Sequence record: OZ035791.1
DNA length: 40,766 nucleotides
Source of the DNA: Kagunavirus LF7074P3
Strand: one strand, 5' to 3'
The notes under the pieces were generated by a model that had not been told where the DNA came from, ran no database searches, and saw only the letters and a list, made by a program, of their open reading frames with translations. Both the position numbers and the translations under genes were made by a program. Shown here piece by piece: positions 2,822 to 40,766 of the stretch (position 1 is the first letter of the stretch; the number at the start of each line of letters is the position of its first letter).

Positions 2822-3898
2822 ATGCTATTAACTTTAGCGCCACAGGGTTTATCTATGAGCTTACTTACATCACTAATCAGCCACCAGATATGGCTGCAAC
2901 GAACCGCATCCGGTGAGGTGAAAGACCTCGCGCCGTTCATTAAGGAGATGCGGGACGAAATCAAACGGCAGGTGCTGCTATTCGGCGACGGCGGTCGCAG
3001 CACTGCGCGACTGAATAAACTGTTACGTGACCTTGAAGAAGCACTGACAGGACTTACTGGTGACTGGCAAACAAAGCTGGCAGAAGACCTCAAGGAACTG
3101 GCGGTGTATGAAGCTGAGTGGAACGTAAAGACCCTGACCGCCAACGTAGATGCGGAATTTGTTACGCCCACCGCCGAACAGGTGTGGGCCGCTGCTGAGT
3201 TTCAGCCATTATCATTGAGTGGCAAGCCAGTTGATTTCACTAAACTGATGTCAGGTTGGGGTGAAACGGAAGTAGCACGTCTTGTAACCGGCGTTAAGAT
3301 GGGCTTTGTACAAGGTCAAACAACACGGCAGATTGTTAAGAATGTAGTAGGCGCCGGTGGGCTGGCTGACATCTCTGAGCGTAACGCCGCTACCGTCATC
3401 CGCACCGCGCTGTCTCACGTGTCCAACGAAGCCCGTAACGAGACGTACCGCCAGAACGACGACATCATCGAGAAGTACGAGTGGGTGTCAACGCTGGACA
3501 GCCGTACCAGTACGATTTGCAGAGCCAGAGACGGAATGACGTGGGAAATTGGTAAAGGGCCGATGCCCCCTGCCCATCCGAACTGCCGGTCGTGCACGGC
3601 TCCGGTAATCAGTTCCGAGTTCGACTTCCTCGATAAAGGCGCAAAACGCGCGGCTAAGGGCGCCGAAGGCGGTACTCAGGTAAGTGCGGACACCACCTAT
3701 TACGAGTTCCTGAAACAACAACCGGCATGGTTTCAGGACCAGGCGCTCGGCCCTGTTCGCGGTAAGATTTTCCGTAACAGCGGTATATCGCCGGAAGAGT
3801 TTCGCGTAATATCTGTAGATGGTTTCGGGAACCCGCTGACGCTTAAGCAGATGGCGGAACTCGATAAACGTGTTGCTGATTATCTGAAAGGGGAATAA
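2822..3898 (+). CDS. head morphogenesis / minor head protein (positional call)
   Basis: 358-aa ORF following portal; start codon uncertain (2822 or 2855); stop overlaps next ATG (TAATG). Confidence 0.55.
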   Translation: MLLTLAPQGLSMSLLTSLISHQIWLQRTASGEVKDLAPFIKEMRDEIKRQVLLFGDGGRSTARLNKLLRDLEEALTGLTGDWQTKLAEDLKELAVYEAEWNVKTLTANVDAEFVTPTAEQVWAAAEFQPLSLSGKPVDFTKLMSGWGETEVARLVTGVKMGFVQGQTTRQIVKNVVGAGGLADISERNAATVIRTALSHVSNEARNETYRQNDDIIEKYEWVSTLDSRTSTICRARDGMTWEIGKGPMPPAHPNCRSCTAPVISSEFDFLDKGAKRAAKGAEGGTQVSADTTYYEFLKQQPAWFQDQALGPVRGKIFRNSGISPEEFRVISVDGFGNPLTLKQMAELDKRVADYLKGE

Positions 3899-4359
3899 TG
3901 ATGGGCTTTTTCAAAGTAACTGACGTACCGTCTCGTCGCGTAGTCCAGTACGCCCGCGTGTCTGGCTCTGGCGAGAACGTGGTGTTTATTGAAGACGAAA
4001 GTGTACTCGGAACACCAGTGGACGATATGCCGTTTGCGGACAAGACCGGTATTGCGCTGCCAGCGGCAGGTATGCTTTATGAGATTCAGTACCTGGCGGA
4101 TGCTGGTGATGTGTATTTCTCCGTACAACCGCAGGACGCTGAACTGGCAGACGGCAGCGCAAATATCGCTGTCGAAGTTAAGGCGGGCAAAGCACCATAT
4201 GCGCTGACCTGGTACAAAGACGGGAAGGAAGTGGTAAACGCCCCGGAAGAGGCTCTGTCTCTGACGGTTAACGCAGTTGGTGAATACTTCGTTAAAGTCA
4301 CTGATGCCGATGGTATAGAGGCCGTAAGTAAAGCAGCGAAGGTTACTAAGCCAGAATAA
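3898..4359 (+). CDS. structural protein with Ig-like C-terminal domain (putative head decoration)
   Basis: 153-aa ORF; C-terminal beta-rich segment ...PYALTWYKDGKEVVN...EYFVKVTDADGIE resembles Ig-like fold; followed by strong terminator. Confidence 0.45.
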   Translation: MMGFFKVTDVPSRRVVQYARVSGSGENVVFIEDESVLGTPVDDMPFADKTGIALPAAGMLYEIQYLADAGDVYFSVQPQDAELADGSANIAVEVKAGKAPYALTWYKDGKEVVNAPEEALSLTVNAVGEYFVKVTDADGIEAVSKAAKVTKPE

Positions 4360-4363
4360 ACTG

Positions 4364-4385
4364 AAGCCCCGAAAGGGGCTTTTTA
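4364..4385 (+). terminator. rho-independent terminator
   Basis: AGCCCC-GAAA-GGGGCT hairpin + TTTTT immediately after 3898..4359. Confidence 0.8.
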
Positions 4386-4448
4386 GTGCCTGTGATTATT
4401 CCAGTTATTCCACTCAATTGTAAATGTTGGAATAAACTATTCGAATAG

Positions 4449-4477
4449 TTGACTTTTCACCAAAAATGTGCTAAGCT
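4449..4477 (+). promoter_or_regulatory. sigma70-like promoter (TTGACT-N17-TAAGCT with TGn extended -10)
   Basis: TTGACT 4449-4454, 17-nt spacer, TGcTAAGCT; abutted upstream by perfect palindrome CTATTCGAATAG (4437-4448). Confidence 0.5.
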
Positions 4478-4654
4478 CCACCTGAGCTTGTGAAGTATGA
4501 ACAAGCGACCGCGGCGCGGGCAGGTAACGGAGCGGGACGTAAGTCCTGAGTGTAGTTACGCTGACGCGTTCGGAAGGGCCATACTCTATTGCTTGTGTAA
4601 AAAGTAACTGGTTTACTGAGATTACGCCGTTTCTATGTTTAAATGATAAGGACT

Positions 4655-4681
4655 AGCGCCCCGCTTTAAGGCGGGGCTTTA
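4655..4681 (+). terminator. weak terminator / attenuator hairpin
   Basis: GCCCCGC-TTTAAG-GCGGGGC hairpin followed by only TTT; lies 20 nt before Rz start. Confidence 0.45.
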
Positions 4682-4701
4682 CTTATCGAGAAAGGGGAAA
4701 C

Positions 4702-5088
4702 ATGAATCTTAAAGCAACTGTCGTAGCGGGAGCATGTTTCATCATCCTGGCTTACGCACACGGCATCTACCAGTATCGCAGCGGCTGGAACGGAGGCCGG
4801 GCGAATCTCGTTTCGCAGCAACAGCAGAAAGCACAGGCTGAGTTAGCTAAGAAAACACAACGGCAGCGGCAGGATGAATCGAAGGCCGCCGCCGCTGATA
4901 ACGAAGGCAAGACGAAATCAGAGGTAATCACCCGTGAAGTCGTTAAGTACATTAAAACGCCTGGCCGCAGCGTGTGCACTTTTGACCCTGAGCGCGTGCA
5001 GCTCAAGTCCCGCGCCGTCGCAAACGCCAATTCCATCCCCGGATACGACGATGATGCAGCCGCCGTGCAAACTGGCACTGCCAAGTAA
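4702..5088 (+). CDS. Rz: Rz-like inner-membrane spanin (i-spanin)
   Basis: 128-aa ORF: N-terminal hydrophobic TMD (VVAGACFIILAYA), charged coiled-coil-like periplasmic domain; contains overlapping lipoprotein ORF in +1 frame; RBS AAAGGGG. Confidence 0.75.
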   Translation: MNLKATVVAGACFIILAYAHGIYQYRSGWNGGRANLVSQQQQKAQAELAKKTQRQRQDESKAAAADNEGKTKSEVITREVVKYIKTPGRSVCTFDPERVQLKSRAVANANSIPGYDDDAAAVQTGTAK

Positions 5089-5197
5089 CGACGCGGACGA
5101 GGATTTAGCTATTGACGTCCAGAACGCAGAATGTGTACGGCAACTGAGACTTAAAGTGTTCATGTTGCAGGATTACGTGAGGAATATTCTGGAATAG
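4934..5197 (+). CDS. Rz1: Rz1-like outer-membrane lipoprotein spanin (o-spanin)
   Basis: 87-aa ORF (GTG start) beginning inside Rz and extending past its stop; signal peptide with lipobox LSAC, Pro-rich mature region SPAPSQTPIPSP. Confidence 0.8.
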   Translation: MKSLSTLKRLAAACALLTLSACSSSPAPSQTPIPSPDTTMMQPPCKLALPSNDADEDLAIDVQNAECVRQLRLKVFMLQDYVRNILE

Positions 5198-5226
5198 TTG
5201 CCTTGTATGTTGGAATAATTTATTCT
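5198..5226 (+). promoter_or_regulatory. candidate promoter for scaffold/capsid genes (TTGCCT-N17-TATTCT)
   Basis: Hexamers with 17-nt spacer; overlaps 19-bp repeat ATGTTGGAATAAtttATTC (5207-5225). Confidence 0.3.
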
Positions 5227-5276
5227 TGACATGTAAATCCGGGTGGCCCGGATTCCAACGTCCAGGGGACATACTG

Positions 5277-5903
5277 ATGAGCGAAGAAGTGAAAGACGAA
5301 ACTATCGAACAACAAGAGACTAAGACCACGTTTACCAAAGAAGAAGTTGACGCGCTGGTATCCGGTCTTAAAGCTAACAACGAGAAACTCTTGTCTGAAA
5401 AGAAAGCTGCCGCCGCTGCCGCGAAAGAAGCCGCAGATGCGAAGCTGAAAGCCGAACAGGAACGCGCAAAACAGAACGGCGAACTTGAGGCATTCGAGAA
5501 AACGTTGCGCAGTCAGTATGAGCCAGTACTCGCCGAGAAAGACGGTAAGATTAGCAAAATGGCTGAGCGTATCCTCGGCGCAGAACGTAAATCAGTTATC
5601 AGCCAGTTGTCTGGCATGTTGATTGATGCGAGCGCAGCGGATATTATCGCTATGATGGTCAAGACCGAATTTGACGGCGATGACGTTGTGACCAAGTTCA
5701 CAGGTGCAGATGGTAATGTCATCACCACCGACGCAGAGCAATTTAAAAAGTATCTGCGTGAGCACAAAGCATTTTCGCATCTGATTAAAGCAGATGCAGC
5801 AACCGGCGGCGGGGCTTCCGGTAACAAAAATTCTACTGGCGGGGCCGGTGGTGCGGACGTAATCCAGCAAAAACTTAACGCCAAATACGGCAAACGAGGA
5901 TAA
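5277..5903 (+). CDS. head scaffolding protein (putative)
   Basis: ATG 5277 with RBS AGGGGA; Ala/Glu/Lys-rich coiled-coil-like 208-aa protein directly upstream of capsid gene. Confidence 0.6.
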   Translation: MSEEVKDETIEQQETKTTFTKEEVDALVSGLKANNEKLLSEKKAAAAAAKEAADAKLKAEQERAKQNGELEAFEKTLRSQYEPVLAEKDGKISKMAERILGAERKSVISQLSGMLIDASAADIIAMMVKTEFDGDDVVTKFTGADGNVITTDAEQFKKYLREHKAFSHLIKADAATGGGASGNKNSTGGAGGADVIQQKLNAKYGKRG

Positions 5904-5909
5904 CAGAAT

Positions 5910-6878
5910 ATGTCTCTGTCAGATATGAAGGTTTATAACGACGATATCGTCGGTACCACTATCGAACTGCTTGGCCAGAAAACTGACCAGTTTAACGCAG
6001 CCTCCGGTGGCGCAATTGTACTGTCTACCGCTTCATGGCGCGGTGACTTCTCCCGTGAGTCTTTCTTTAACCAGATTGCCTCCGCTAAACGCCGCGTTGA
6101 CCGTTACGCCGATATCGCGTCTCAGGCAGCTACCGCGCTGACTCAGGGCGAGCATGTAGGCGTTAAAGTCGCTGGCGGCTTCGGACCGGTACTGTTCGAG
6201 CCTGCGCAAATGACCTGGCTGAACGAAGACCCGGCGAGCGCGATTCGTGCTATCTCCGAAGGGTTCTCTGACGCACTGTTAGCTGACCAGCTTAACACCG
6301 CTGTTGGTGCCGCCGTTGCCGCGGTATCAGGTCAGACTGCACTGGTTAACGATGTATCCGCGACCGCTGGCTTGACCCTGAACGTGCTGAACAACAGCCA
6401 CGCTAAATTCGGCGACCAGTCTCAGTTGTTGGTCACTGACATCATGACCGGCGCGGCCTACCACACTCTGGTGGACAAAGCGCTGACCAACGCAAACCAG
6501 TTGTTCGTTGCTGGCAACGTTATGGTTGTCGATGTTCTCGGCAAGCGTTACGTAATCTCTGACATTCCTGCGCTGTACGAGGCCGGTACTCCGAACAAGA
6601 CTAAGGTCCTGTCCGTAGTTGCAAACGGCATCATCGTTGATAATGCTTCTGACATTATCAGCAACATTGACACCAGCAACGGTAACACCCGCATCCAGAC
6701 CACCTGGCAGGCGGACTACAGCTTCGGCCTGAAACTGAAAGGCTACAGCTGGGACGTTACCAACGGCGGTAAATCTCCGCTGGACGCAGAACTGTTCACC
6801 GCGACTAACTGGGACAAAGCTGTTGCCGAGAACAAGCACACCCTCGGTACTCTGGCAATCGCCGACGCAGACCTGTAA
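5910..6878 (+). CDS. major capsid protein (positional call)
   Basis: 322-aa ORF after scaffold, followed by strong terminator; typical late-operon position. Confidence 0.65.
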   Translation: MSLSDMKVYNDDIVGTTIELLGQKTDQFNAASGGAIVLSTASWRGDFSRESFFNQIASAKRRVDRYADIASQAATALTQGEHVGVKVAGGFGPVLFEPAQMTWLNEDPASAIRAISEGFSDALLADQLNTAVGAAVAAVSGQTALVNDVSATAGLTLNVLNNSHAKFGDQSQLLVTDIMTGAAYHTLVDKALTNANQLFVAGNVMVVDVLGKRYVISDIPALYEAGTPNKTKVLSVVANGIIVDNASDIISNIDTSNGNTRIQTTWQADYSFGLKLKGYSWDVTNGGKSPLDAELFTATNWDKAVAENKHTLGTLAIADADL

Positions 6879-6897: not shown

Positions 6898-6919
6898 AAA
6901 GGGGCTTCGGCCCCTTTTT
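6898..6919. terminator. rho-independent terminator
   Basis: GGGGC-TTCG-GCCCC hairpin flanked by A-run upstream and TTTTT downstream. Confidence 0.8.
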
Positions 6920-6935
6920 ACTAGGAGAAATTAAA

Positions 6936-13000: not shown

Positions 13001-13030
13001 TTTAAACCCCTTCATTGTTGGTGTAAGTGA

Positions 13031-13059
13031 ATAGTACCCTATTATATTGGGGTGTGCAA
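13031..13059 (-). promoter_or_regulatory. sigma70-like promoter TTGCAC-N17-TACTAT driving the minus-strand island
   Basis: Minus-strand reading cTTGCACaccccaatATAATAGGGTACTATTCAC; 32/34 identical to promoter at 34757-34790. Confidence 0.6.
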
Positions 13060-31465: not shown

Positions 31466-33673
31466 CTATTCCAAATCCTCTTCTGTCACCACCAGCATTT
31501 CATTCGGTTCGTATATTGTCTTCGGTCTTAGTCTATCCCCTATTCTTTCAGGTATACGATACGTTCTCGGTACTACTTCGCCATTAGCATCACAGCCTAG
31601 CATTAGTTCACCATCTTTCAGCATTTTATCAAGATGGGTGTTAGTCACAGAAAAGTCACCGGAACGGGCCACTATCTGCTGCTGAGTAAAACCGCGACCT
31701 GTGTCATCTGACTGTTGCAGGTCTTCCAGTGCCGAAAGTATCGACTCCTTCCTTACTTCATCCCTGCCGCGTTTAACTTCTTCCTTTACTTTTTGTTTAC
31801 CTTCGTTAGTTAACCCTTCTTCCCGCTCTTTCTCCTCGTCAGTTTTGAACGGCTCGAAGCCCCACGGCATCAGAACAAGCGCCTTGTGTGGTTCCGGCAG
31901 GTCGAGGTTTACGATTGTGCCGTATTCCTCTGTGCTGCCCAAGAACTCAACAGCACGGTACTCTTTCGGCGGTGGTGCTTCACGGAACTGTACAGACTCA
32001 AGTACCATGCCAACCGTTTTCTGTTGAGGCCCGTGCTTAAATTTCGAGTGGTATACGTTTATCTGACGGTCGGTTGCACGTTCTATTGTCAGTTCCACAT
32101 CGACACCCGCATACAGCGCCCCGCTGCCACGGGCTTTCTTTCCGCCCTTCGGTGTATGGTGGACGACGCCCACCGCGGCTTTAGTTGCGTCACGTACTTC
32201 TTTAAGGATGGCGATAACTTTACCCATGCCGATTGCCGTTGATGAACTGTTCTCGTCGAACTTATCAATCGTCATGGCCAGTGTCTGGTTAAGGGTGTCG
32301 AACGCAACCATCCCAATTGGCTCGTCACCCGCAGTTTCTCGCATTAGCTTAATCAGGCTTTTCAGTTTGCCAACTTCGCCCATATCGATGACATGTACAT
32401 AATCTTTACCTTCCTCGCCGTATTTAGCCGCGAGTGCATCAATACGGGTGCGTGTGGCAGCACCGCCCTCACCGTCAATATAGAAATGGTGGCAACGCTG
32501 TGTATCAGCGCCTGCAAACCGGTACCCGGCGGCGCTCAGGTACATCATACCCAGCGTATAGAATGATTTATATGTGCCGGATTCCCCGACGATGTCCCAG
32601 ATGCAATCCGACGGCATGTACCCTTCAACGACGAAATCAGCCTTTACCGGTTCAGGTAACTCGTCATCGTCTTCAAGGTCTTCCAGTGTACAAGTTACAG
32701 GCTCCTCGTTCTCTGTGCGGTGCAGTTCTTCAATCTCTTCATCCGGTAAATCAGGCAGAGCCGCACGAATGCTGTTAATACTGATAGGTTGCTTGTCTAC
32801 GTTAAGCTCGTCCGGAAGGCCGCACATACGCAGGGCCAAATGTTGTCGGCGGTTAAGCTCAGTGCAAGCACCGTTGTTTGTGTGCTGGCACACGAAGCGC
32901 ACTTCTTTACCGTCGAGCATGATGCTGGTGGAGCCTTTGCCGGTGTGCAGGTGTTCGTTAGGGCAAGGCACTTCGTACCCGCGACCGGAAGATAAAGCGT
33001 CAAGGCCAAGCTCCGCTTCGCAGAAATGCGCTATATCCGCGTTAAGCCCATGCTCATCGGCAGCAAGGGTCTTAGCTTCACGCTTACGCAACCCCATTTC
33101 TTCGGCTTTCTTGATGTACCGCTCGGCACGGATAACACGCCCTTCTGTAACCGTTATCTTCGACTCTTTATGCGGCAGGTAGATAAGGCGGTTGCCATCT
33201 TCTGTGCAGTGGTCGCGCAATGCTTCGTCTATTTCTAACTCAGCACAAATAGCACGTTGCACCATCCACGCGTCGTTAGAGTTAAACGGCGTGCGGGCCG
33301 GTACAAGAACGCGGAAAGCGTAGTCACCGTTTTTACACGCGTGCTGGTGCGACGCCGTTGTGTGCAGAATATTGAAGAACGGCGCGTTCTTGAATTTGCG
33401 GGTGAGGTCGCGGTACTGGGTACGGTTTAGATGGTCGAAATCGAACTTAACCACACTGTCTTCCAGAATCGCGTTCTTACGGCGACCGCCAACCGGCGCA
33501 ATAGCTTTCTGCTTAATCTTGGCCGCGTCGTACTCTTCCTTAGTCCATGACGGGTCTACGGACAGACGCTTCGATGTATCGCAGACATACTCTACAAACT
33601 GCTCCAGTGGCATTTCACGGGCTACCGGGTTTTTATCGAAAGTGTTACGCAGCGTTGCAAAAACAATATTCAT
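31466..33673 (-). CDS. DNA primase / RecA-like ATPase (primase-helicase-like) replication protein
   Basis: 735 aa; central Cys/His zinc-binding-like segment (CPNEHLHTGK...C), Walker A-like GESGTYKS and Walker B-like VAFDTL. Confidence 0.7.
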   Translation of the reverse strand: MNIVFATLRNTFDKNPVAREMPLEQFVEYVCDTSKRLSVDPSWTKEEYDAAKIKQKAIAPVGGRRKNAILEDSVVKFDFDHLNRTQYRDLTRKFKNAPFFNILHTTASHQHACKNGDYAFRVLVPARTPFNSNDAWMVQRAICAELEIDEALRDHCTEDGNRLIYLPHKESKITVTEGRVIRAERYIKKAEEMGLRKREAKTLAADEHGLNADIAHFCEAELGLDALSSGRGYEVPCPNEHLHTGKGSTSIMLDGKEVRFVCQHTNNGACTELNRRQHLALRMCGLPDELNVDKQPISINSIRAALPDLPDEEIEELHRTENEEPVTCTLEDLEDDDELPEPVKADFVVEGYMPSDCIWDIVGESGTYKSFYTLGMMYLSAAGYRFAGADTQRCHHFYIDGEGGAATRTRIDALAAKYGEEGKDYVHVIDMGEVGKLKSLIKLMRETAGDEPIGMVAFDTLNQTLAMTIDKFDENSSSTAIGMGKVIAILKEVRDATKAAVGVVHHTPKGGKKARGSGALYAGVDVELTIERATDRQINVYHSKFKHGPQQKTVGMVLESVQFREAPPPKEYRAVEFLGSTEEYGTIVNLDLPEPHKALVLMPWGFEPFKTDEEKEREEGLTNEGKQKVKEEVKRGRDEVRKESILSALEDLQQSDDTGRGFTQQQIVARSGDFSVTNTHLDKMLKDGELMLGCDANGEVVPRTYRIPERIGDRLRPKTIYEPNEMLVVTEEDLE

Positions 33674-33798
33674 TTCTTTTTCTCCGCGCGTTCTAAGGCT
33701 TCCTGCATACGACGCATTGCGCGGTTCATCTTTACCGGTGCGAAGAAATCAGCGCCGTGTTTCTGGCGGCGCAACTGTGGAACTATTAACTTCGTCAT
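33670..33798 (-). CDS. small basic protein (42 aa)
   Basis: RBS AAGGA; stop overlaps primase ATG (ATGA). Confidence 0.3.
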   Translation of the reverse strand: MTKLIVPQLRRQKHGADFFAPVKMNRAMRRMQEALERAEKKK

Positions 33799-33838
33799 TG
33801 TATAATCCTTGTGCTTACTTTGATGATTTGTGCTTCGG

Positions 33839-33869
33839 CCCCGACGTTCTAGCGTTGGGGTTTCTTTTT
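33839..33869 (+). terminator. plus-strand hairpin + T-tract inside leftward operon
   Basis: CCCCGACG-TTCTAG-CGTTGGGG (one G-U) followed by TTTCTTTTT; hairpin weaker on minus strand. Confidence 0.4.
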
Positions 33870-34158
33870 ACCGTTTAGCCAACTCTTCCAGCAAATTTTT
33901 ATACTCTTCAAAATATTCCTCGACCAAATCATCGCCGAAATAGAAGTCGATATACTCGAGATTATCTCTTACGTTAAGCGACGCAGACATGGTGCTTAGT
34001 TGGCGTAAGCTAATTAGCTTCATTTCTGTTTCTACACAGAAAGGCCGGTAGGTATCGAGGTGGCAAGAGATGTTGAAGCATAAAGCGAACTCTCCCGCCA
34101 CGGAGTGAACCATATACACTTCGTTTTCTGCTTTATTGTGGAAAATTACACCTTTCAT
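33868..34158 (-). CDS. hypothetical protein
   Basis: 96-aa ORF, ATGA overlap with upstream HTH gene. Confidence 0.45.
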   Translation of the reverse strand: MKGVIFHNKAENEVYMVHSVAGEFALCFNISCHLDTYRPFCVETEMKLISLRQLSTMSASLNVRDNLEYIDFYFGDDLVEEYFEEYKNLLEELAKR

Positions 34159-34337
34159 TTCACATTCTCCTTAATCCATTCTTCAACTTTATTACGGTCA
34201 AATGTACCTGGTAAACGGCGACCCATAACCTTAATACAACAATCAGGGAATTTACCACTGCGCAACCAGTTATTAATTGTCTGACGTGTTACCCCAATAC
34301 GCTCGGCTACTTCATTCTGGGTCATGTAATGTTGCAT
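34155..34337 (-). CDS. small HTH DNA-binding protein (AlpA/excisionase-like fold)
   Basis: 60 aa from ATG 34337 (RBS AGGAG); ...MTQNEVAERIGVTRQTINNWL...; track ORF to 34451 judged an extension across promoter DNA. Confidence 0.55.
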   Translation of the reverse strand: MQHYMTQNEVAERIGVTRQTINNWLRSGKFPDCCIKVMGRRLPGTFDRNKVEEWIKENVK

Positions 34338-34368
34338 TTTTATATCTCCTGTTTGTTTGGTGAAGCTG

Positions 34369-34397
34369 AGTATAGGATAGCGGGAATGTAAAAGCAA
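34369..34397 (-). promoter_or_regulatory. leftward early promoter TTGCTT-N17-TATACT
   Basis: Minus-strand hexamers with 17-nt spacer, about 25 nt upstream of ATG 34337. Confidence 0.5.
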
Positions 34398-34434
34398 CCA
34401 ATCCCTGCAATATTTAATCTTTACAAAAAAGTTA

Positions 34435-34464
34435 TTGAAAGTTCTTGACACATGTTTGTATAAT
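34435..34464 (+). promoter_or_regulatory. rightward promoter TTGAAA-N18-TATAAT
   Basis: Consensus -10 TATAAT at 34459-34464; divergent from leftward promoter; no ORF for about 350 nt downstream. Confidence 0.5.
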
Positions 34465-34491
34465 GGTTTTGGGACTTGTATATATTACGGA

Positions 34492-34523
34492 GTTGACGAA
34501 CCCTCCCTGAGGGATTCGTCAAC
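34492..34523. repeat. 32-bp near-perfect palindrome GTTGACGAAcCCTCcctGAGGGaTTCGTCAAC
   Basis: 14-bp arms with one bulge; read directly. Confidence 0.8.
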
Positions 34524-34663
34524 CCCTCCCAGACAGCTGAGATGCTTGTTTTAGGGTTTAAGGATAAGTGTATCTAAATCTCATTTAAAGAAGTAACCCA
34601 CTGAAATATCTACTGTTTCTTAATGTGCCGTAGATTCGCAACCGTAAAAATGTAACGATTATT

Positions 34664-34691
34664 GGGCAGGCTTAAGGCCTGCCCTTTAGTT
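34664..34691 (+). terminator. rho-independent terminator
   Basis: GGGCAGGC-TTAAG-GCCTGCCC hairpin followed by TTTAGTT. Confidence 0.6.
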
Positions 34692-34756
34692 ACCAAGTAA
34701 TAAGAATAAAGGCACAACCTTCCCCGAAGAATCGCAACGGCAGCGTAACTATTCTC

Positions 34757-34785
34757 TTGCACACCCCAACATAATAGGATACTAT
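34757..34785 (+). promoter_or_regulatory. sigma70-like promoter TTGCAC-N17-TACTAT with ATAG-N4-CTATTCA dyad
   Basis: cTTGCACaccccaacATAATAGGATACTATTCAC; near-identical copy on minus strand at 13027-13060. Confidence 0.65.
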
Positions 34786-34819
34786 TCACTTATCGGAACG
34801 AGACAGAGGAGTTGGGGTT

Positions 34820-35005
34820 ATGTTTAAGAAGGGTCAGTTGGTGAGAACCAGACACCATGGCAAAGGTGTAATTAAGCACGTTTCGCAGAGAGTTGCAGAT
34901 AGGTATCTTCTTACCAATCCGTATTGGGATTTTGATATGTATTTCCAGGGACGCGAAATAGTAGAGCTCATCGGCAACAATTTTAAATTCAAAGGGGCGA
35001 AGTGA
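34820..35005 (+). CDS. hypothetical small protein
   Basis: 61-aa ORF, RBS GAGGAG. Confidence 0.5.
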   Translation: MFKKGQLVRTRHHGKGVIKHVSQRVADRYLLTNPYWDFDMYFQGREIVELIGNNFKFKGAK

Positions 35006-35190
35006 TGGAAGAATTAATTTACGACGTATACGTCGACGGGGTCATAACAGAGACGACAAGTAATAAAGATTACGCAATAAAGCGGTATGTGTATTATGCC
35101 GCAGTGGTAGGAAGGATGGTAGAAGTGCGGGAGCAAACGGCATCGAATCATGATGCTCGTGCCGACGACTCTGAGGGAGGTTGCCGTTAA
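35005..35190 (+). CDS. hypothetical small protein
   Basis: ATG 35005 overlapping previous stop; RBS AGGGG. Confidence 0.45.
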   Translation: MEELIYDVYVDGVITETTSNKDYAIKRYVYYAAVVGRMVEVREQTASNHDARADDSEGGCR

Positions 35191-35345
35191 TGCGAATCCG
35201 TATAACTGACCGCAGGCTTATAGATTTCGGTATCTCGGTAGGTGATGTTTTTCTGGCGTTCAGCAGCAACCATTATGGTTTTATGATTGAGTACAAAGGG
35301 TCGTTATTGTTCGTGTATCGGGATGAATGTGAGGTTCTGGTATGA
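35190..35345 (+). CDS. hypothetical small protein (51 aa)
   Basis: TAATG overlap, RBS GAGGGAGG; not in ORF track. Confidence 0.4.
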   Translation: MRIRITDRRLIDFGISVGDVFLAFSSNHYGFMIEYKGSLLFVYRDECEVLV

Positions 35346-35485
35346 GAGAAGCATTTGAACGGTGGGCTGTGGTCGAGGGTCTGCCGGTTAACAAGGGTTC
35401 AAAGAAAGAGTACCTGAACGTTAAGACCCGTCTCGCGTGGCGGGCGTTGAAAGCTGGTGTGTTGTCTGTTGCGAATCCGAGGTGA
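35342..35485 (+). CDS. hypothetical small protein (47 aa)
   Basis: ATGA overlap with upstream ORF; not in ORF track. Confidence 0.35.
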   Translation: MREAFERWAVVEGLPVNKGSKKEYLNVKTRLAWRALKAGVLSVANPR

Positions 35486-35488
35486 GAT

Positions 35489-35689
35489 ATGAGCGAGTGG
35501 ATTAAGTGTAGTGAGATGCTGCCAGGTAATGGGTATACGGATAAAGAGTTCCTGGTGTATGAAACGTTAAATAACGCAGTTCAGCACGATTATTACATAG
35601 TTCCTGATGACGGGAGAAAGCCTTTCTGGAATCACTACGATAAGTACGTGACGCACTGGATGCCGTTACCCGAGCCGCCAGAAGTGTGA
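35489..35689 (+). CDS. hypothetical protein (DUF551-like C-terminus)
   Basis: 66 aa ending ...VTHWMPLPEPPEV, reminiscent of DUF551 phage proteins (recall-based). Confidence 0.45.
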   Translation: MSEWIKCSEMLPGNGYTDKEFLVYETLNNAVQHDYYIVPDDGRKPFWNHYDKYVTHWMPLPEPPEV

Positions 35690-35822
35690 TGTTCAATAGT
35701 TTGGGATCTTACTGAGTGACTTACGCTGCTACACAGCAGCGTACAACTTTAACTTAGTGTCGTCAAAGGCGACACTTTCATCAAACGCAACAATCGAAGC
35801 GACTATTGCAGGAGATGCAACA

Positions 35823-35996
35823 ATGATTACTAAAGAACAGGCTGAACGACTAATCACGTTAATCGACACGATGATTGACGTAAAAACCGATTTAGCAACG
35901 GCAACAGAGGAATCCGCTACCTGGTCGCTTGAAGAAAGAGAAGCAGAAGCGGAAAGGGAGTTACTGGCGTTCATCGACTCTATAACACACCAATAA
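35823..35996 (+). CDS. hypothetical small protein
   Basis: ATG 35823 with GGAG 8 nt upstream; in frame with track ORF 35757..35996. Confidence 0.4.
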   Translation: MITKEQAERLITLIDTMIDVKTDLATATEESATWSLEEREAEAERELLAFIDSITHQ

Positions 35997-36003
35997 AATT
36001 TAC

Positions 36004-36032
36004 TTGCACACTAAGATAGAATAGGCTACTAT
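36004..36032 (+). promoter_or_regulatory. sigma70-like promoter TTGCAC-N17-TACTAT with ATAG-N4-CTATTCA dyad
   Basis: aCTTGCACactaagatagAATAGGCTACTATTCA, 32 nt upstream of gene at 36064. Confidence 0.6.
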
Positions 36033-36063
36033 TCATTTACACAAACGAGAGGGGAGACAGAAT

Positions 36064-36612
36064 ATGAAAGATTATAGCGAAGTAACTTTAGGTGAGTTGC
36101 AGGACGAGTACGAAGATATGCTCTACCCGTTCATCTGCGACGGGGACTACAACGGCGTCTATAACGGGGTGAGCGAAGACCTGGCGCATGAGGTGCAGAT
36201 TAAGGAGTTGCGGGAAGACAACATTAAGAAATCTGAGCACATATCGCACCTAACAGGGCAAGTTAAGGAGTTGCGTCTGGCATTGGCCAAGGCTACTGGT
36301 GACGTGGAGGCATACAAACTTATCCGCAAAGGTGCGTACGGTTCGGAGCAATCTGGTTGCCGAAAAGAAGATACGCAGGAATGTGACCACAATTGGATTA
36401 TCGCTCCAGGATTGTTTATTGCCGAAGGCCACAAGGACAACGTGCCCGGTAGCCTGTTTTGCTGCGAATGCGGCAAGCGTGAGTGGGACGGACTTGAGTA
36501 TGGGCCAACAGCCTGTACACGGGAGTGCAAACACAGTTTCTATTATGTAATAACAGATGGCTCCGCGCCGTTCGGTACGAAAGTATGTAAAACGTGCGGG
36601 GAATACTTCTGA
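36064..36612 (+). CDS. Cys-rich (zinc-ribbon-like) hypothetical protein
   Basis: 182 aa; N-terminal coiled-coil-like region, C-terminal CxxC...CxxC clusters. Confidence 0.5.
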   Translation: MKDYSEVTLGELQDEYEDMLYPFICDGDYNGVYNGVSEDLAHEVQIKELREDNIKKSEHISHLTGQVKELRLALAKATGDVEAYKLIRKGAYGSEQSGCRKEDTQECDHNWIIAPGLFIAEGHKDNVPGSLFCCECGKREWDGLEYGPTACTRECKHSFYYVITDGSAPFGTKVCKTCGEYF

Positions 36613-36815
36613 TGACCAGCATCTTATTTATCTGGGTGCTGTCCACGGGTCAGATGCATCTGGCGGCATCAGAAACGTTTTACTCGATGGAGGCGTGCCA
36701 GTCAGCGGCACGCGCCGCAGAGAACGCGCACTTCCTGTTTCAGGGTGACAAGCCTAACGATTCAGAGGTACGCGCTATCTGCTCACCTAAACGTATTGGT
36801 AAACAGGAGAAATAA
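36612..36815 (+). CDS. small secreted/membrane-anchored protein
   Basis: 67 aa from ATG 36612 (overlaps upstream stop); N-terminal hydrophobic signal-like segment MTSILFIWVLSTGQMHLAAS. Confidence 0.45.
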   Translation: MTSILFIWVLSTGQMHLAASETFYSMEACQSAARAAENAHFLFQGDKPNDSEVRAICSPKRIGKQEK

Positions 36816-36816
36816 C

Positions 36817-37020
36817 ATGGTACAGAGATATTTATTACAAGGCGGTTTAATTGGGCCGCACGACGCAGGTGATTGGGTTGGCTATGAAGATTACGCAAAA
36901 CTTGAGGCCGCCGTTATCGCCTTACTTATGGATATAAATCGACGCTACCCTGGAGAAGGGTTTAAGTGCCCGTTAATACTTAAACTCGCGGAGATTGTGG
37001 AACATGAGCCTGGCAACTGA
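36817..37020 (+). CDS. hypothetical small protein
   Basis: ATG 36817 with AGGAG upstream; 67 aa. Confidence 0.45.
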   Translation: MVQRYLLQGGLIGPHDAGDWVGYEDYAKLEAAVIALLMDINRRYPGEGFKCPLILKLAEIVEHEPGN

Positions 37021-37297
37021 CATCCTTAAACGCAGCGGCCTTGCGCCGCTGTCGCCGAGAGCGAATACACGAATACACAAGCGCCGCCGTAATGCACTGT
37101 ACCCCGAGATTCAGGCCAGGCGCAAAGCGGTCCGCGCCTGTGGATTCCAGAACGGGAAGGCCGTGAATCTCGGTGAGTTTAAAACGCAGGAACGTGCAGC
37201 TATCGCTAATCGGCTATTTAATTACTGGAAATCGCTGGGGTACGTGGATATTCCGACGAAACCACAGAGACGACAATACATCTGGCGGCATAAATAA
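37004..37297 (+). CDS. AP2-like DNA-binding domain protein (putative)
   Basis: ...GFQNGKAVNLGEFKTQERAAIANRLF... resembles AP2/ERF-type three-strand + helix DNA-binding domains found in phage proteins (recall-based). Confidence 0.4.
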   Translation: MSLATDILKRSGLAPLSPRANTRIHKRRRNALYPEIQARRKAVRACGFQNGKAVNLGEFKTQERAAIANRLFNYWKSLGYVDIPTKPQRRQYIWRHK

Positions 37298-37327
37298 ACC
37301 GTTATTAAGATAATTCCTACCCGTGGT

Positions 37328-37368
37328 ATCCTCCAGTTACTGCATACTTAATACGCACCTGGAGGATT
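37328..37368 (+). promoter_or_regulatory. hairpin sequestering the holin RBS
   Basis: ATCCTCCAG (37328-37336) pairs with CTGGAGGAT (37360-37368), 23-nt loop; 3' arm contains GGAGGA Shine-Dalgarno 6 nt before TTG start at 37373. Confidence 0.5.
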
Positions 37369-37372
37369 CATC

Positions 37373-37681
37373 TTGGATAAATTTACTGAAACAGTGACAG
37401 GCTGGCTTCTCGCCGCCGCGCTCGCCGGAGGGGTCATCGGACTACGACAACATAAGTCCGTTATTTCTGGCCCTATCGACGGATTCTGCTTTATTGCTAC
37501 TGGTTTCGCCTGCGCTGTATTTGGCGCACCTCTCGCGGCTCAATGGTTCGGTATCACGGGCGACCGTGAAATCGCTGGCCTTGGCTTCATCATCGCTATT
37601 CTCTGGATGCCTATCTATTCCCGTCTCTCCAGTATCGTCGCTGGAGAATACATCGCACGTCGAGGAGGCACAGATGAATGA
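37373..37681 (+). CDS. holin (3-TMD, class I-like)
   Basis: 102 aa with three hydrophobic segments and charged C-terminus; TTG start; directly upstream of lysozyme gene. Confidence 0.6.
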   Translation: MDKFTETVTGWLLAAALAGGVIGLRQHKSVISGPIDGFCFIATGFACAVFGAPLAAQWFGITGDREIAGLGFIIAILWMPIYSRLSSIVAGEYIARRGGTDE

Positions 37682-37946
37682 GTTATTCTGGTTCGGCGGT
37701 ATGCTGGCAATCGGCGGCACATCGCTGTTTAATGTATACCATCCGAGCGTGGATGACGGGCTATTTGGTCGGGTGCTCTATATCCTGACTGCTATCGTCT
37801 GCGCTGCCGGATGTATCCACCTGTTACAGGGCAGCATGTCGCCGACGCTGCCTGAGACATTAATCACATTAGTTGCGCTGCGTCAGATTCGTCAGGCGTG
37901 GCTGTCATACGGAGGACATAAGCGTGTCTCGAAACATTTCAGATAA
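37674..37946 (+). CDS. second holin-like 2-TMD membrane protein (holin/antiholin candidate)
   Basis: 90 aa from ATG 37674 with strong RBS AGGAGG; two hydrophobic segments; overlaps both neighbours. Confidence 0.5.
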   Translation: MNELFWFGGMLAIGGTSLFNVYHPSVDDGLFGRVLYILTAIVCAAGCIHLLQGSMSPTLPETLITLVALRQIRQAWLSYGGHKRVSKHFR

Positions 37947-38412
37947 TGGATTGCATTTTACCGCCGCGTTTGAGGGGTTCCGCGGAACTGCGTATCGTGC
38001 TACGCCATCGGAAAAATACTTAACTACAGGCTACGGTCATTACGGGCCGGACGTGGCCCCAGGCAAGACCATCACGCCAGGGCAAGGCCTCCTGTTACTG
38101 AACCGTGATATGGCTAAGGCCGTAGCTGCGGTTGACGCAGCGGCGCACCATTCGCTAACACAGGCGCAGTTTGATGCAGTGTGCGACCTGGTCTATAACG
38201 CGGGGGCCGGCGTTATTTCGGCTACTACCGGTACAGGTAAGGCACTGCGCTCCGGTGATATCGCGACGTTACGGGCTAAACTGGCGCTGTTCATCAACCA
38301 GAACGGCAAACCGTTACTGGGCCTTCGCCGCCGTACCGCCGGTCGCCTGGCGCTGTTTGACGGTAAACCGTGGCAAGAGGCGGAGGCTATCGGGCGCGCG
38401 GTGAAAGGTTGA
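37924..38412 (+). CDS. endolysin (phage lysozyme, GH24-like)
   Basis: ...AFEGFRGTAYRATPSEKYLTTGYGHYG... lysozyme-like catalytic region; GTG 37924 with AGGAGGA upstream. Confidence 0.7.
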   Translation: MSRNISDNGLHFTAAFEGFRGTAYRATPSEKYLTTGYGHYGPDVAPGKTITPGQGLLLLNRDMAKAVAAVDAAAHHSLTQAQFDAVCDLVYNAGAGVISATTGTGKALRSGDIATLRAKLALFINQNGKPLLGLRRRTAGRLALFDGKPWQEAEAIGRAVKG

Positions 38413-38476: not shown

Positions 38477-38509
38477 ATCCCGGCCCTGACCCAGCCGGGA
38501 TTTTTTTTA
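38477..38509 (+). terminator. strong rho-independent terminator
   Basis: TCCCGGC-loop-GCCGGGA hairpin followed by T8. Confidence 0.85.
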
Positions 38510-38530
38510 TCTATTTTCTGCAATGACTAG

Positions 38531-40250: not shown

Positions 40251-40766
40251 ATGAAGCTGAAACTCAAGCAGCCATCGCCAGAGGTGGTGCAAGCTGCACA
40301 TGAAGAAGCTGTTAGCGCAAACCGTCGACGTAAACGACCGCGCGGTAAACAGAGCCTTTATCAATCGTCCCGTAATTCCGCCGCGTTGTGGGACCCGGAC
40401 TATTGCGACGAATTGATTCGTTTCTTCGACCGCACGTCATGGGAGTCTATGCCGACCGGTGCACACGGAGACTACAAAGCTGTCATTGCGGACAAGCCAC
40501 CGTCACTGGCCCGCTTTGCATTGCACATCGGCGTCACTATCCCGATTATTAAGTTGTGGCTGCGTGAGATTCCAGCTTTTGCAGAAGCATATGAAACAGC
40601 ACAGGCGCTGGAAGAGGCATACTTCACTGAGACGGGGGCCGCGGGTATCTCCGCTACGTTTGCTGCCGCGAAGCTGGGCCTCGGTAAAGAGAAACCAGTT
40701 GAATCTACAGAAGAAACAGCACCGACTGAGATTATTTTCAGTGTTGCAGAGCCTGTAGGTAAAATC
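40251..40766 (+). CDS. terS: terminase small subunit (putative), 3'-truncated by window end
   Basis: ATG 40251 with RBS AAGGGGA; frame open for 172 codons to the last base; basic N-terminus RRRKRPRGK; position immediately before terL if ends are joined. Confidence 0.6.
   Translation, partial: MKLKLKQPSPEVVQAAHEEAVSANRRRKRPRGKQSLYQSSRNSAALWDPDYCDELIRFFDRTSWESMPTGAHGDYKAVIADKPPSLARFALHIGVTIPIIKLWLREIPAFAEAYETAQALEEAYFTETGAAGISATFAAAKLGLGKEKPVESTEETAPTEIIFSVAEPVGKI

Follow-up and report, generated by a model that had tools for sequence, protein, structure and literature searches.

Between the head morphogenesis and scaffold genes of Kagunavirus LF7074P3 (sequence record OZ035791.1; the whole stretch of 40,766 nucleotides (nt) that was analysed is referred to here as the window) lie two overlapping open reading frames (ORFs), which an earlier note made from the sequence had taken for an Rz/Rz1 spanin pair situated 32 kb from the holin and endolysin genes and served by a promoter and leader of its own. 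The locus raises the question of what such a pair is doing among head genes, and of what the sequence in front of it is for. The two ORFs are very probably the two-component spanin of a K1G-like Kagunavirus (Guernseyvirinae), belonging to the published "Jersey" overlapped family, and they are preceded by a promoter-leader block which is better conserved than the flanking genes. The coordinates of all features are collected in Table 1.

The overlapping Rz and Rz1 genes

The first gene of the pair, Rz, follows a Shine-Dalgarno sequence (AAGGGG, 4692-4697), and its product has a sole strongly hydrophobic stretch, for which the best 17-residue Kyte-Doolittle window covers residues 3-19 with a mean of 1.94. 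The 104 residues outside this transmembrane domain (TMD) include 18 K/R and 12 D/E (30 charged residues) and a single cysteine, at position 92, which gives the layout of an i-spanin as defined by Summer et al. 2007 and Kongari et al. 2018, a single N-terminal transmembrane helix with a charged or helical periplasmic domain behind it. PHROG 2536 ("Rz-like spanin") matches residues 1-128 with an E-value of 2.8e-56. A search of the PDB with the Rz sequence returned no match, and a Pfam scan at E-values up to 0.1 gave only sub-threshold matches to DUF2514 (15.1 bits against a cutoff of 26 bits) and FTZ.

The second gene, Rz1, is read in the +1 frame relative to Rz (4934 - 4702 = 232 nt), from a GTG which is the only start codon upstream of the lipobox in this open frame and which is preceded by AGAGG at 4920-4924. 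The N-terminus consists of the predicted signal MKSLSTLKRLAAACALLTLSA followed by CSSSPAPSQTPIPSPD, with cleavage expected before C22 in the lipobox L-S-A-C22. The mature part of 66 amino acids contains 8 prolines in addition to Cys45 and Cys67, so that by pattern and hydropathy Rz1 has the lipobox cysteine, the residue other than Asp at +2 and the small mature domain of an o-spanin. PHROGs 5672 and 1267, both named "Rz-like spanin", match it with E-values of 7.4e-30 and 6.1e-20, respectively. The gene overlaps Rz on the same strand by 155 nt and continues for 109 nt past the Rz stop codon, and the architecture is thus overlapped and not embedded. When all six frames of the window were scanned for lipoproteins, Rz1 was the only credible candidate. 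The four others were set aside as artefacts, one being an internal start within the TMD of a holin and three being antisense ORFs.

Both frames are kept open in the 33 distinct Rz/Rz1 allele pairs found in relatives, despite the divergence of their nucleotide sequences. The lipobox cysteine is present in every one of them, the periplasmic cysteines (Cys92 of Rz, and the two further cysteines of Rz1, Cys45 and Cys67) are conserved, and the lipobox itself occurs as LSAC (C22), LASC (C23), LSGC, LNGC or ITGC. Two alleles of the Rz1 signal, seen among others in relatives L001, L008 and L015, read LLTLSAC/SSS and LSTMLASC/SS, which shifts the cysteine that would be lipidated by one position. One relative (L036) carries a "separated" form of the spanin, with an Rz of 118 amino acids, an Rz1 of 81 amino acids with the lipobox ITGC, and an overlap of 14 nt; the same dimorphism between overlapped and separated forms has been described for Jersey and FSL SP-031 (Kongari et al. 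2018, PMC6139136).

The pair has already been annotated, catalogued and published, and its arrangement is not new. It is labelled "i-spanin"/"o-spanin" in Sciku (CPT_Sciku_008/009) and Shashou, and "putative spanin" in the GenBank records of K1G, K1H and K1ind (2010), the RefSeq versions of which have "Rz-like spanin". In the spanin census of Kongari et al. 2018 (BMC Bioinformatics 19:326, PMC6139136), the "Jersey" family has 27 members, including Jersey, SETP3, SE2, K1G, K1H and K1ind1-3, and is the largest of the overlapped families. The supplementary tables of that census list a 387-nt i-spanin gene and a 155-nt overlap for K1G, K1H and K1ind, a 21-residue signal ending in TLSA and, for the K1H i-spanin, a coiled coil at residues 33-66, and the conservation of Cys45 and Cys67 is reported as well. 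The pair in the window shares with this family the lengths of its products (128 and 87 amino acids), the overlap, the +1 frame, the TLSA/C signal, both Rz1 cysteines, the coiled-coil segment and the slot between the Hoc-like and scaffold genes. It is set apart only by a difference of the R55Q type in Rz (one residue in all from the K1H i-spanin of Table S1, R55 here and Q in K1H) and by minor allelic differences in Rz1. Similarity to the family and to PHROGs 2536, 5672 and 1267 extends over the full length of the proteins, and the arrangement is conserved across the Guernseyvirinae, in which the pair is universal and syntenic.

The anatomy that had been proposed in the earlier note is consistent with all of this: the Rz ORF with its N-terminal TMD and charged periplasmic domain agrees with the coordinates, hydropathy and charge counts, the +1-frame Rz1 with the lipobox LSAC agrees with the ORF, frame, hydropathy and PHROG matches, and the proline-rich mature region and the overlapped architecture are as it described them. 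Its assignment of the two genes to Rz/Rz1 spanins is also that of the Sciku and K1G/K1H annotations and of the census. A reading of the sequence by itself had therefore recovered a correct and non-trivial dual-coding pair, the value of which lies mainly in quality control.

Several points weigh against the spanin assignment. No sequence homology to lambda Rz/Rz1 was found with Pfam at E-values up to 0.1 (there was no match at all for Rz1), the NCBIfam model P2_Rz1 (NF038368) scored 13.7 bits (E 0.052) against a cutoff of 27 bits, and no homology to P2 LysB/LysC was seen. The prediction that Rz1 is a lipoprotein is derived from the lipobox pattern, from a hydropathy script and from the LipoP results of Kongari et al. 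on the near-identical K1G and K1H proteins. The literature search found no experiment on any member of the "Jersey" spanin family, and essentially all spanin experiments concern lambda Rz/Rz1 (Kongari et al., PMC6139136). Judging by sequence, Rz and Rz1 of the window belong to the spanin class and to the Jersey family, and not to the lambda families.

Table 1 Features of the spanin locus, its surroundings and the lysis cassette in the window.
Feature	Position	Strand	Remarks
i-spanin gene (Rz-like)	4702..5088	+	ATG start; 128 aa; one N-terminal TMD, charged periplasmic domain; Cys92
o-spanin gene (Rz1-like)	4934..5197	+	GTG start; 87-aa putative prolipoprotein; lipobox LSAC (Cys22), Ser at +2, Cys45, Cys67
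Sigma-70-type promoter, read from sequence	4449..4477	+	-35 TTGACT 4449-4454; 17-nt spacer; TG 4469-4470; -10 TAAGCT 4472-4477
Structured non-coding leader RNA	4484..4591	+	5' hairpin 4486-4506; long irregular helix; apical hairpin
Terminator-like hairpin ending the leader	4658..4680	+	GCCCCGCT-TTAA-GGCGGGGC then TTTACTT
36-aa ORF	4497..4607	+	"hypothetical protein" in several GenBank records (such as KE1_005, CPT_Sciku_007)
Inverted repeat GAATAAACTATTC	4430..4442		Immediately precedes the leader promoter's -35; centre about 48 nt before the start of transcription that is predicted
Mu-F-like head morphogenesis gene	2822..3898		PF04233, 3.2e-13
Hoc-like Ig-domain protein gene	3898..4359		
Intrinsic terminator closing the terminase-portal-MuF-Hoc-like unit	4363..4386	+	GAAGCCCC-GAAA-GGGGCTT then TTTTAG; a terminator on the minus strand too
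Candidate weak scaffold promoter	5198..5226	+	TTGCCT, 17 nt, TATTCT; inverted repeat 5213-5225 spans spacer and -10
Scaffold gene	5277..5903	+	Same terminator-bounded unit as the spanin genes
Major capsid gene	5910..6878	+	PF20036, 7.9e-105; same terminator-bounded unit as the spanin genes
Strong terminator after the capsid gene	6898-6920		
Holin gene	37373..37681	+	Lysis cassette
Second holin gene	37674..37946	+	Lysis cassette
Endolysin gene	ends 38412	+	Lysis cassette 37373..38412
Strong terminator after the endolysin gene	38478-38510		

Map position, transcription unit and proposed role in lysis

The distance between spanin and lysis genes depends on how the genome is read. Positions 4300-5400 of the window are identical (100%) to Kagunavirus LF7074P1 (OZ035752) and show 95-99.7% identity to many K1G-like coliphages, with 195 matching phage records in total, from Escherichia Kagunavirus and Salmonella Jerseyvirus. 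Positions 40300-40766 are likewise 100% identical to LF7074P1, and since the final 467 nt of the window align with the final 467 nt of OZ035752, the window represents an entire genome whose opening point lies at the terminase genes. Records of relatives are circular, or headful packaging is predicted for them (Sciku paper, PMC6753286); the group packages by a headful mechanism (PMC6753286), and the genome is circularly permuted. The 32 kb claimed at the outset is therefore an artefact of a linear map opened at an arbitrary point, and was not borne out. By the shortest path, the stop codon of the endolysin gene and the start codon of Rz are (40766 - 38412) + 4702 nt, i.e. about 7.06 kb, apart, and this path runs rightwards, all on the plus strand, via the terminase, portal, MuF and Hoc-like genes. 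On a circularly permuted genome that has been opened arbitrarily, the map is no guide to how far a gene lies from the lysis cassette.

The separation itself, as distinct from its length, stands, as does the placement between head morphogenesis and scaffold genes, on which the Pfam and PHROG matches of the neighbours agree. No spanin gene follows the endolysin gene in the cassette, which is closed by a terminator. A comparable separation has been published for phage Golestan, with the spanin genes as ORF7/8 and the holins and endolysin as ORF66-68 (PMC7203180). Strong terminators lie both behind the Hoc-like gene and behind the capsid gene, so that Rz/Rz1, scaffold and capsid form one terminator-bounded unit.

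With this anatomy in place, a mechanism can be drawn from the lambda and T4 paradigms, from which we infer membrane topology, lipidation, fusion and the timing of expression. The i-spanin of 128 residues would be held in the inner membrane by the helix near its N-terminus, this terminus staying inside and the helical domain reaching into the periplasm. The o-spanin precursor of 87 residues would be lipidated at Cys22 and cleaved, the serine at +2 leading to its sorting to the outer membrane. The C-terminal regions of the two proteins would bind each other across the periplasm, disulfides (through Cys92 of Rz and Cys45 and Cys67 of Rz1) may stabilise the complexes, and the peptidoglycan mesh would keep them inactive. 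Upon holin triggering and degradation of the wall by the endolysin, the spanins would then fuse or disrupt the outer membrane, as the final step of lysis. Because such a complex would be inert until the wall is removed, late expression would be all that is needed, and linkage to the holin and endolysin genes would be dispensable. Here the pair would be expressed as the first cistrons of the unit that it shares with the scaffold and major capsid genes, from a sigma-70-type promoter followed by a structured leader and a weak terminator.

The position of the pair apart from the lysis cassette could also be taken to mean that it is no lysis device but a moron-like membrane protein and lipoprotein, acting in superinfection exclusion or receptor masking in the manner of T5 Llp or Cor, and the promoter region of its own, the promoter-like repeats flanking it, the insertion hot spot found at its upstream junction in relatives and the lack of a functional test of the "Jersey" spanin family in the literature would suit such a role. 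We consider this very improbable, since a TMD protein overlapped in the +1 frame by a small proline-rich lipoprotein is the diagnostic architecture of spanins, and since the genome has no other spanin candidate although its host is Gram-negative. Moreover, the pair is universal and syntenic in the Guernseyvirinae and not sporadic, and its periplasmic cysteine pattern is conserved, as would be expected of spanins.

The hot spot lies at 4387-4397, between the terminator of the Hoc-like gene and the conserved leader. Its cargo in relatives is varied and is encoded on the minus strand; an adenine methyltransferase and several hypothetical proteins are among the products, with inserts at 802-1530 in L004, 993-1708 in L005, 992-1531 in L006 and 1362-1529 in L008.

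The leader upstream of Rz

The promoter and leader that the earlier note had assigned to the pair are present, but they are not specific to the spanin genes, since a paralogue stands at the start of another operon in relatives and the unit is shared with the scaffold and capsid genes. Across Kagunavirus and Jerseyvirus, the promoter-leader block is better conserved than the genes on either side of it. With positions 4360-4701 as the query, 178 of the 180 matching records were aligned over 89-100% of its length, all 178 with at least 95% identity; when the query was extended to 1101 nt so as to take in the flanks, identity was below 90% in 67 of the 195 records. For the leader itself (4484-4591), identity in 178 phage records is 96-100%, and the genes flanking it reach 73-88% in Jerseyviruses. 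In the Salmonella Jerseyviruses, the 305 nt from 4397 to 4701 are 96-99% identical, against 70-89% for the Hoc-like, Rz, Rz1 and scaffold genes. Within the block, the promoter and the first ~100 transcribed nt (core 4449-4591, with transcription predicted to start near 4484) move as one conserved unit, and neither promoter hexamer varies in any copy, not even in the divergent paralogues.

The transcribed part of the core contains a conserved loop, GAGUGUAG, followed by the conserved sequence UUCGGAAGG...UCUAUUG. When 30 distinct core variants were folded individually, they all gave one architecture, composed of a 5' hairpin, a long irregular helix and an apical hairpin. The apical stem occurs as GGAC/GUCC, GUGC/GCAC, GGGC/GCCC, CGGAC/GUCCG, GUGCC/GGCAC or CACG/CGUG, and in the lower helix one pair is C-G, U-A or A-U and another is U-A, A-U or G-C. 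The loop of the 5' hairpin is not invariant, with GAAGUAUGA being replaced by a GAUA tetraloop. In an alignment of 16 sequences, 96.9% of the cells are paired, compared with 31-46% when the partners are slid, and there are 15 cells with a double change, compared with 0-2 in the slid controls. These compensatory changes preserve the pairing of the RNA and not the frame of the 36-aa ORF which some records annotate within it. As a leader peptide this ORF was rejected, for in copies that are otherwise intact it is cut to 8-22 amino acids, frameshifted or without an ATG; it is probably not a gene but a mis-annotation inside a structured RNA.

The leader ends in a GC-rich hairpin (4658-4677) located 21 nt ahead of the Rz start codon, which gives a predicted transcript of ~195 nt up to this point. 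The short and poor U-tract behind it suggests that termination would be partial. In Sciku, a C-G pair of the terminator stem is changed to A-U in a compensatory manner.

No Rfam family accounts for the leader. Searching the whole window with Rfam (15) at gathering score gave no match to it, and permissive E-values on 4340-4730 gave at best 12-17 bits, far below the thresholds. A covariance model of the leader scores the copy in front of Rz at 134 bits and nothing else in the window above 8.5 bits; blastn, nhmmer --max and cmsearch without filters found no second copy in the window either. In IMG/VR, the 14-base pattern GAGTGTAGTNNCGCTG gave mostly chance matches, which were filtered with nhmmer. 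Across IMG/VR, the GTDB species genomes and metagenome contigs, the leader was found only in Guernseyvirinae-like contigs of ~40-45 kb. A 6.2-kb contig (L135, JAEWLW010000073.1) binned in a "Bacillota bacterium" metagenome-assembled genome also carries it; aligned segments of this contig are 71-98% identical to positions 32667-37479 of the window, which makes it Kagunavirus DNA and a binning error, and hence no evidence for the leader outside the phage group.

Copies with enough flanking sequence lie either directly before Rz (66 copies) or at one other site (26 copies), and none was found elsewhere. The other site, equivalent to 34401-34727 of the window, heads a rightward operon that leads through small genes to the holins and the endolysin. 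Second copies are found in relatives L007 (1601-1744), L009 (28104-28247, corresponding to Sciku 37503-37646), L016, L040, L043, L048 and L135. In the window, this site is occupied by an unrelated leader, in which TTGAAA...TATAAT (~34436-34466) is followed by a hairpin (34493-34524) and a terminator (34667-34688). A minus-strand "hypothetical protein" of 35 amino acids (CPT_Sciku_053) is annotated across the second copy in Sciku. The paralogues from the two sites have unrelated 3' halves, and one core variant (the L015 type) is present at both sites, which implies exchange between them.

Regarding what the leader does, we rank a cis-acting role in antitermination or attenuation as the likeliest, followed by a trans-acting small RNA and then by recombination. 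In the first case, comparable to lambda pR'-6S-tR' with Q, to N/nut or to HK022 put, the leader would govern read-through into Rz/Rz1, scaffold and capsid, and its paralogue would co-regulate the holins and endolysin. At both sites the order is promoter, structured RNA, terminator hairpin and genes; the promoter and the first ~100 transcribed nt are conserved together, and in relatives the copies are confined to the starts of two operons. The Sciku annotation has plus-strand terminators dispersed among the rightward genes, and the terminator of the leader itself has a poor U-tract. Against these points, no Q-like or N-like protein was recognised by Pfam in nine ORFs near the control region and upstream of the lysis genes (including 35489-37297), or in the Sciku annotation, a search that would pass over unrecognised analogues; and the window lacks the second copy and has a different leader in its place. 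The HTH protein encoded at 34158..34340 is a candidate phage regulator. An unfiltered search of the complete HK022 genome with model R1 reached 11.5 bits at best (E 0.54), a result that speaks to homology only. This best match (L177, 36886-36956) lies at pR', just after gene Q, with nothing near pL or pR, and was judged coincidental, being made up of an inverted repeat of 6 bp that surrounds the -10 element and a shared TTGACTTTT. Taken together, antitermination or attenuation in cis is possible and is suggested here tentatively. The broader proposal, in which the leader would be an undescribed, lineage-specific cis-regulatory RNA of the Guernseyvirinae whose paralogues bring the spanin and holin/endolysin genes, unlinked as they are, under joint control with the late genes by processive antitermination or attenuation, is put forward more tentatively still.

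With a promoter and a terminator hairpin of its own, the leader might instead be a free-standing small RNA of ~195 nt (4484 to ~4681) acting in trans on host or phage targets, in which case the spanins would be expressed by leaky read-through or from the upstream operon. Conservation of the site-1 copies does include the unstructured 3' part, and a pair of sibling copies is common among small RNAs. Such a role is nevertheless unlikely, as the element is always in sense orientation and directly ahead of an operon, the paralogues differ entirely in their 3' halves, the loop of the 5' hairpin is variable and the terminator is weak.

The near-identity of the 305-nt block could, finally, reflect recombination that homogenises a mosaic junction among Guernseyvirinae, with no function involved. 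The left edge of the block (~4397) coincides with the variable insertion site of relatives, and the L015-type core occurs at both sites. Yet the divergent copies at the second site keep the fold by compensatory changes, which requires selection on the RNA structure. The block may owe part of its homogeneity to recombination, but this leaves the covariation unexplained, and as the whole explanation recombination is decidedly improbable. A cis-acting regulatory role is the one favoured among the three.

Literature searches on transcription, non-coding RNA or antitermination in Guernseyvirinae or Jerseyvirus returned nothing relevant, which is absence of evidence only, and the conserved leader RNA upstream of Rz appears to be undescribed. 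To our knowledge, the transcriptional programme of these phages is essentially unstudied. Phages of this group that infect K1-capsule Escherichia coli and Salmonella are widely used candidates for therapy and biocontrol. Given a block of ~300 nt which tops the conservation of the flanking genes across two genera, and which holds a structured RNA with compensatory changes that belongs to no Rfam family, the leader is the part of the locus that possibly deserves follow-up, and may matter more than the spanin pair.

Further elements surround the leader and the pair. Inverted repeats of the form GAATA-N(2-6)-TATTC occur three times in the window (4430-4442, 5213-5225 and 36019-36034), against 0.15 expected, and those at 5213 and 36019 span the spacer and -10 of promoter-like sequences. 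A related motif is seen at 13028-13047 and at ~34770-34790. The repeat resembles the motif tgAATAGTa-ccTATTat-T, described in the paper on fBC-Eco01 as "phage RNA polymerase promoters", although the annotation has no gene for a phage RNA polymerase. A phage regulator probably binds at the repeat. The region of the putative scaffold promoter also carries a direct repeat of the 4424-4442 region, and its pattern would fit the other promoters bearing an inverted repeat better than does TTGACA at 5226-5231, which was set aside as a -35 since it has no -10. The stretch that separates the Rz1 stop codon from the start of the scaffold gene contains a perfect 8-bp hairpin (5236-5254, AATCCGGG-TGG-CCCGGATT) with no U-tract, which could be an element of RNA processing or stability, or a protein-binding site.

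Comparison with known systems

The layout of the leader may be compared with lambda pR'-6S-tR', where a strong promoter of the sigma-70 type is likewise followed by a leader of ~200 nt up to a terminator, then by lysis genes and then by head genes. Unlike in lambda, no Q homologue was found here, and the conserved part is a covarying RNA structure and not just promoter DNA.

The spanin pair resembles lambda Rz/Rz1 in combining a type II inner-membrane protein that has a helical periplasmic domain with a small proline-rich outer-membrane lipoprotein encoded in the +1 frame, as well as in its periplasmic cysteines, and it presumably acts by the same mechanism. It differs from lambda in that the genes are overlapped and not fully embedded, in that the pair lies outside the lysis cassette, and in the beta strands in the i-spanin linker and the C-terminal o-spanin helix which Kongari et al. 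predict for the "Jersey" family.

As regards position, a parallel is found in pseT.3/pseT.2 of T4, which also lack linkage to the genes for holin (t) and endolysin (e), although they have a separated, non-overlapping architecture and belong to an unrelated sequence family. The T4 pair proved functional when tested by complementation in lambda (Kongari 2018, Fig. 8 legend, PMC6139136), and linkage to holin and endolysin is therefore not required. The pair described here would be a further example, like T4, of spanins that need late expression and not a place next to the holin and endolysin genes.

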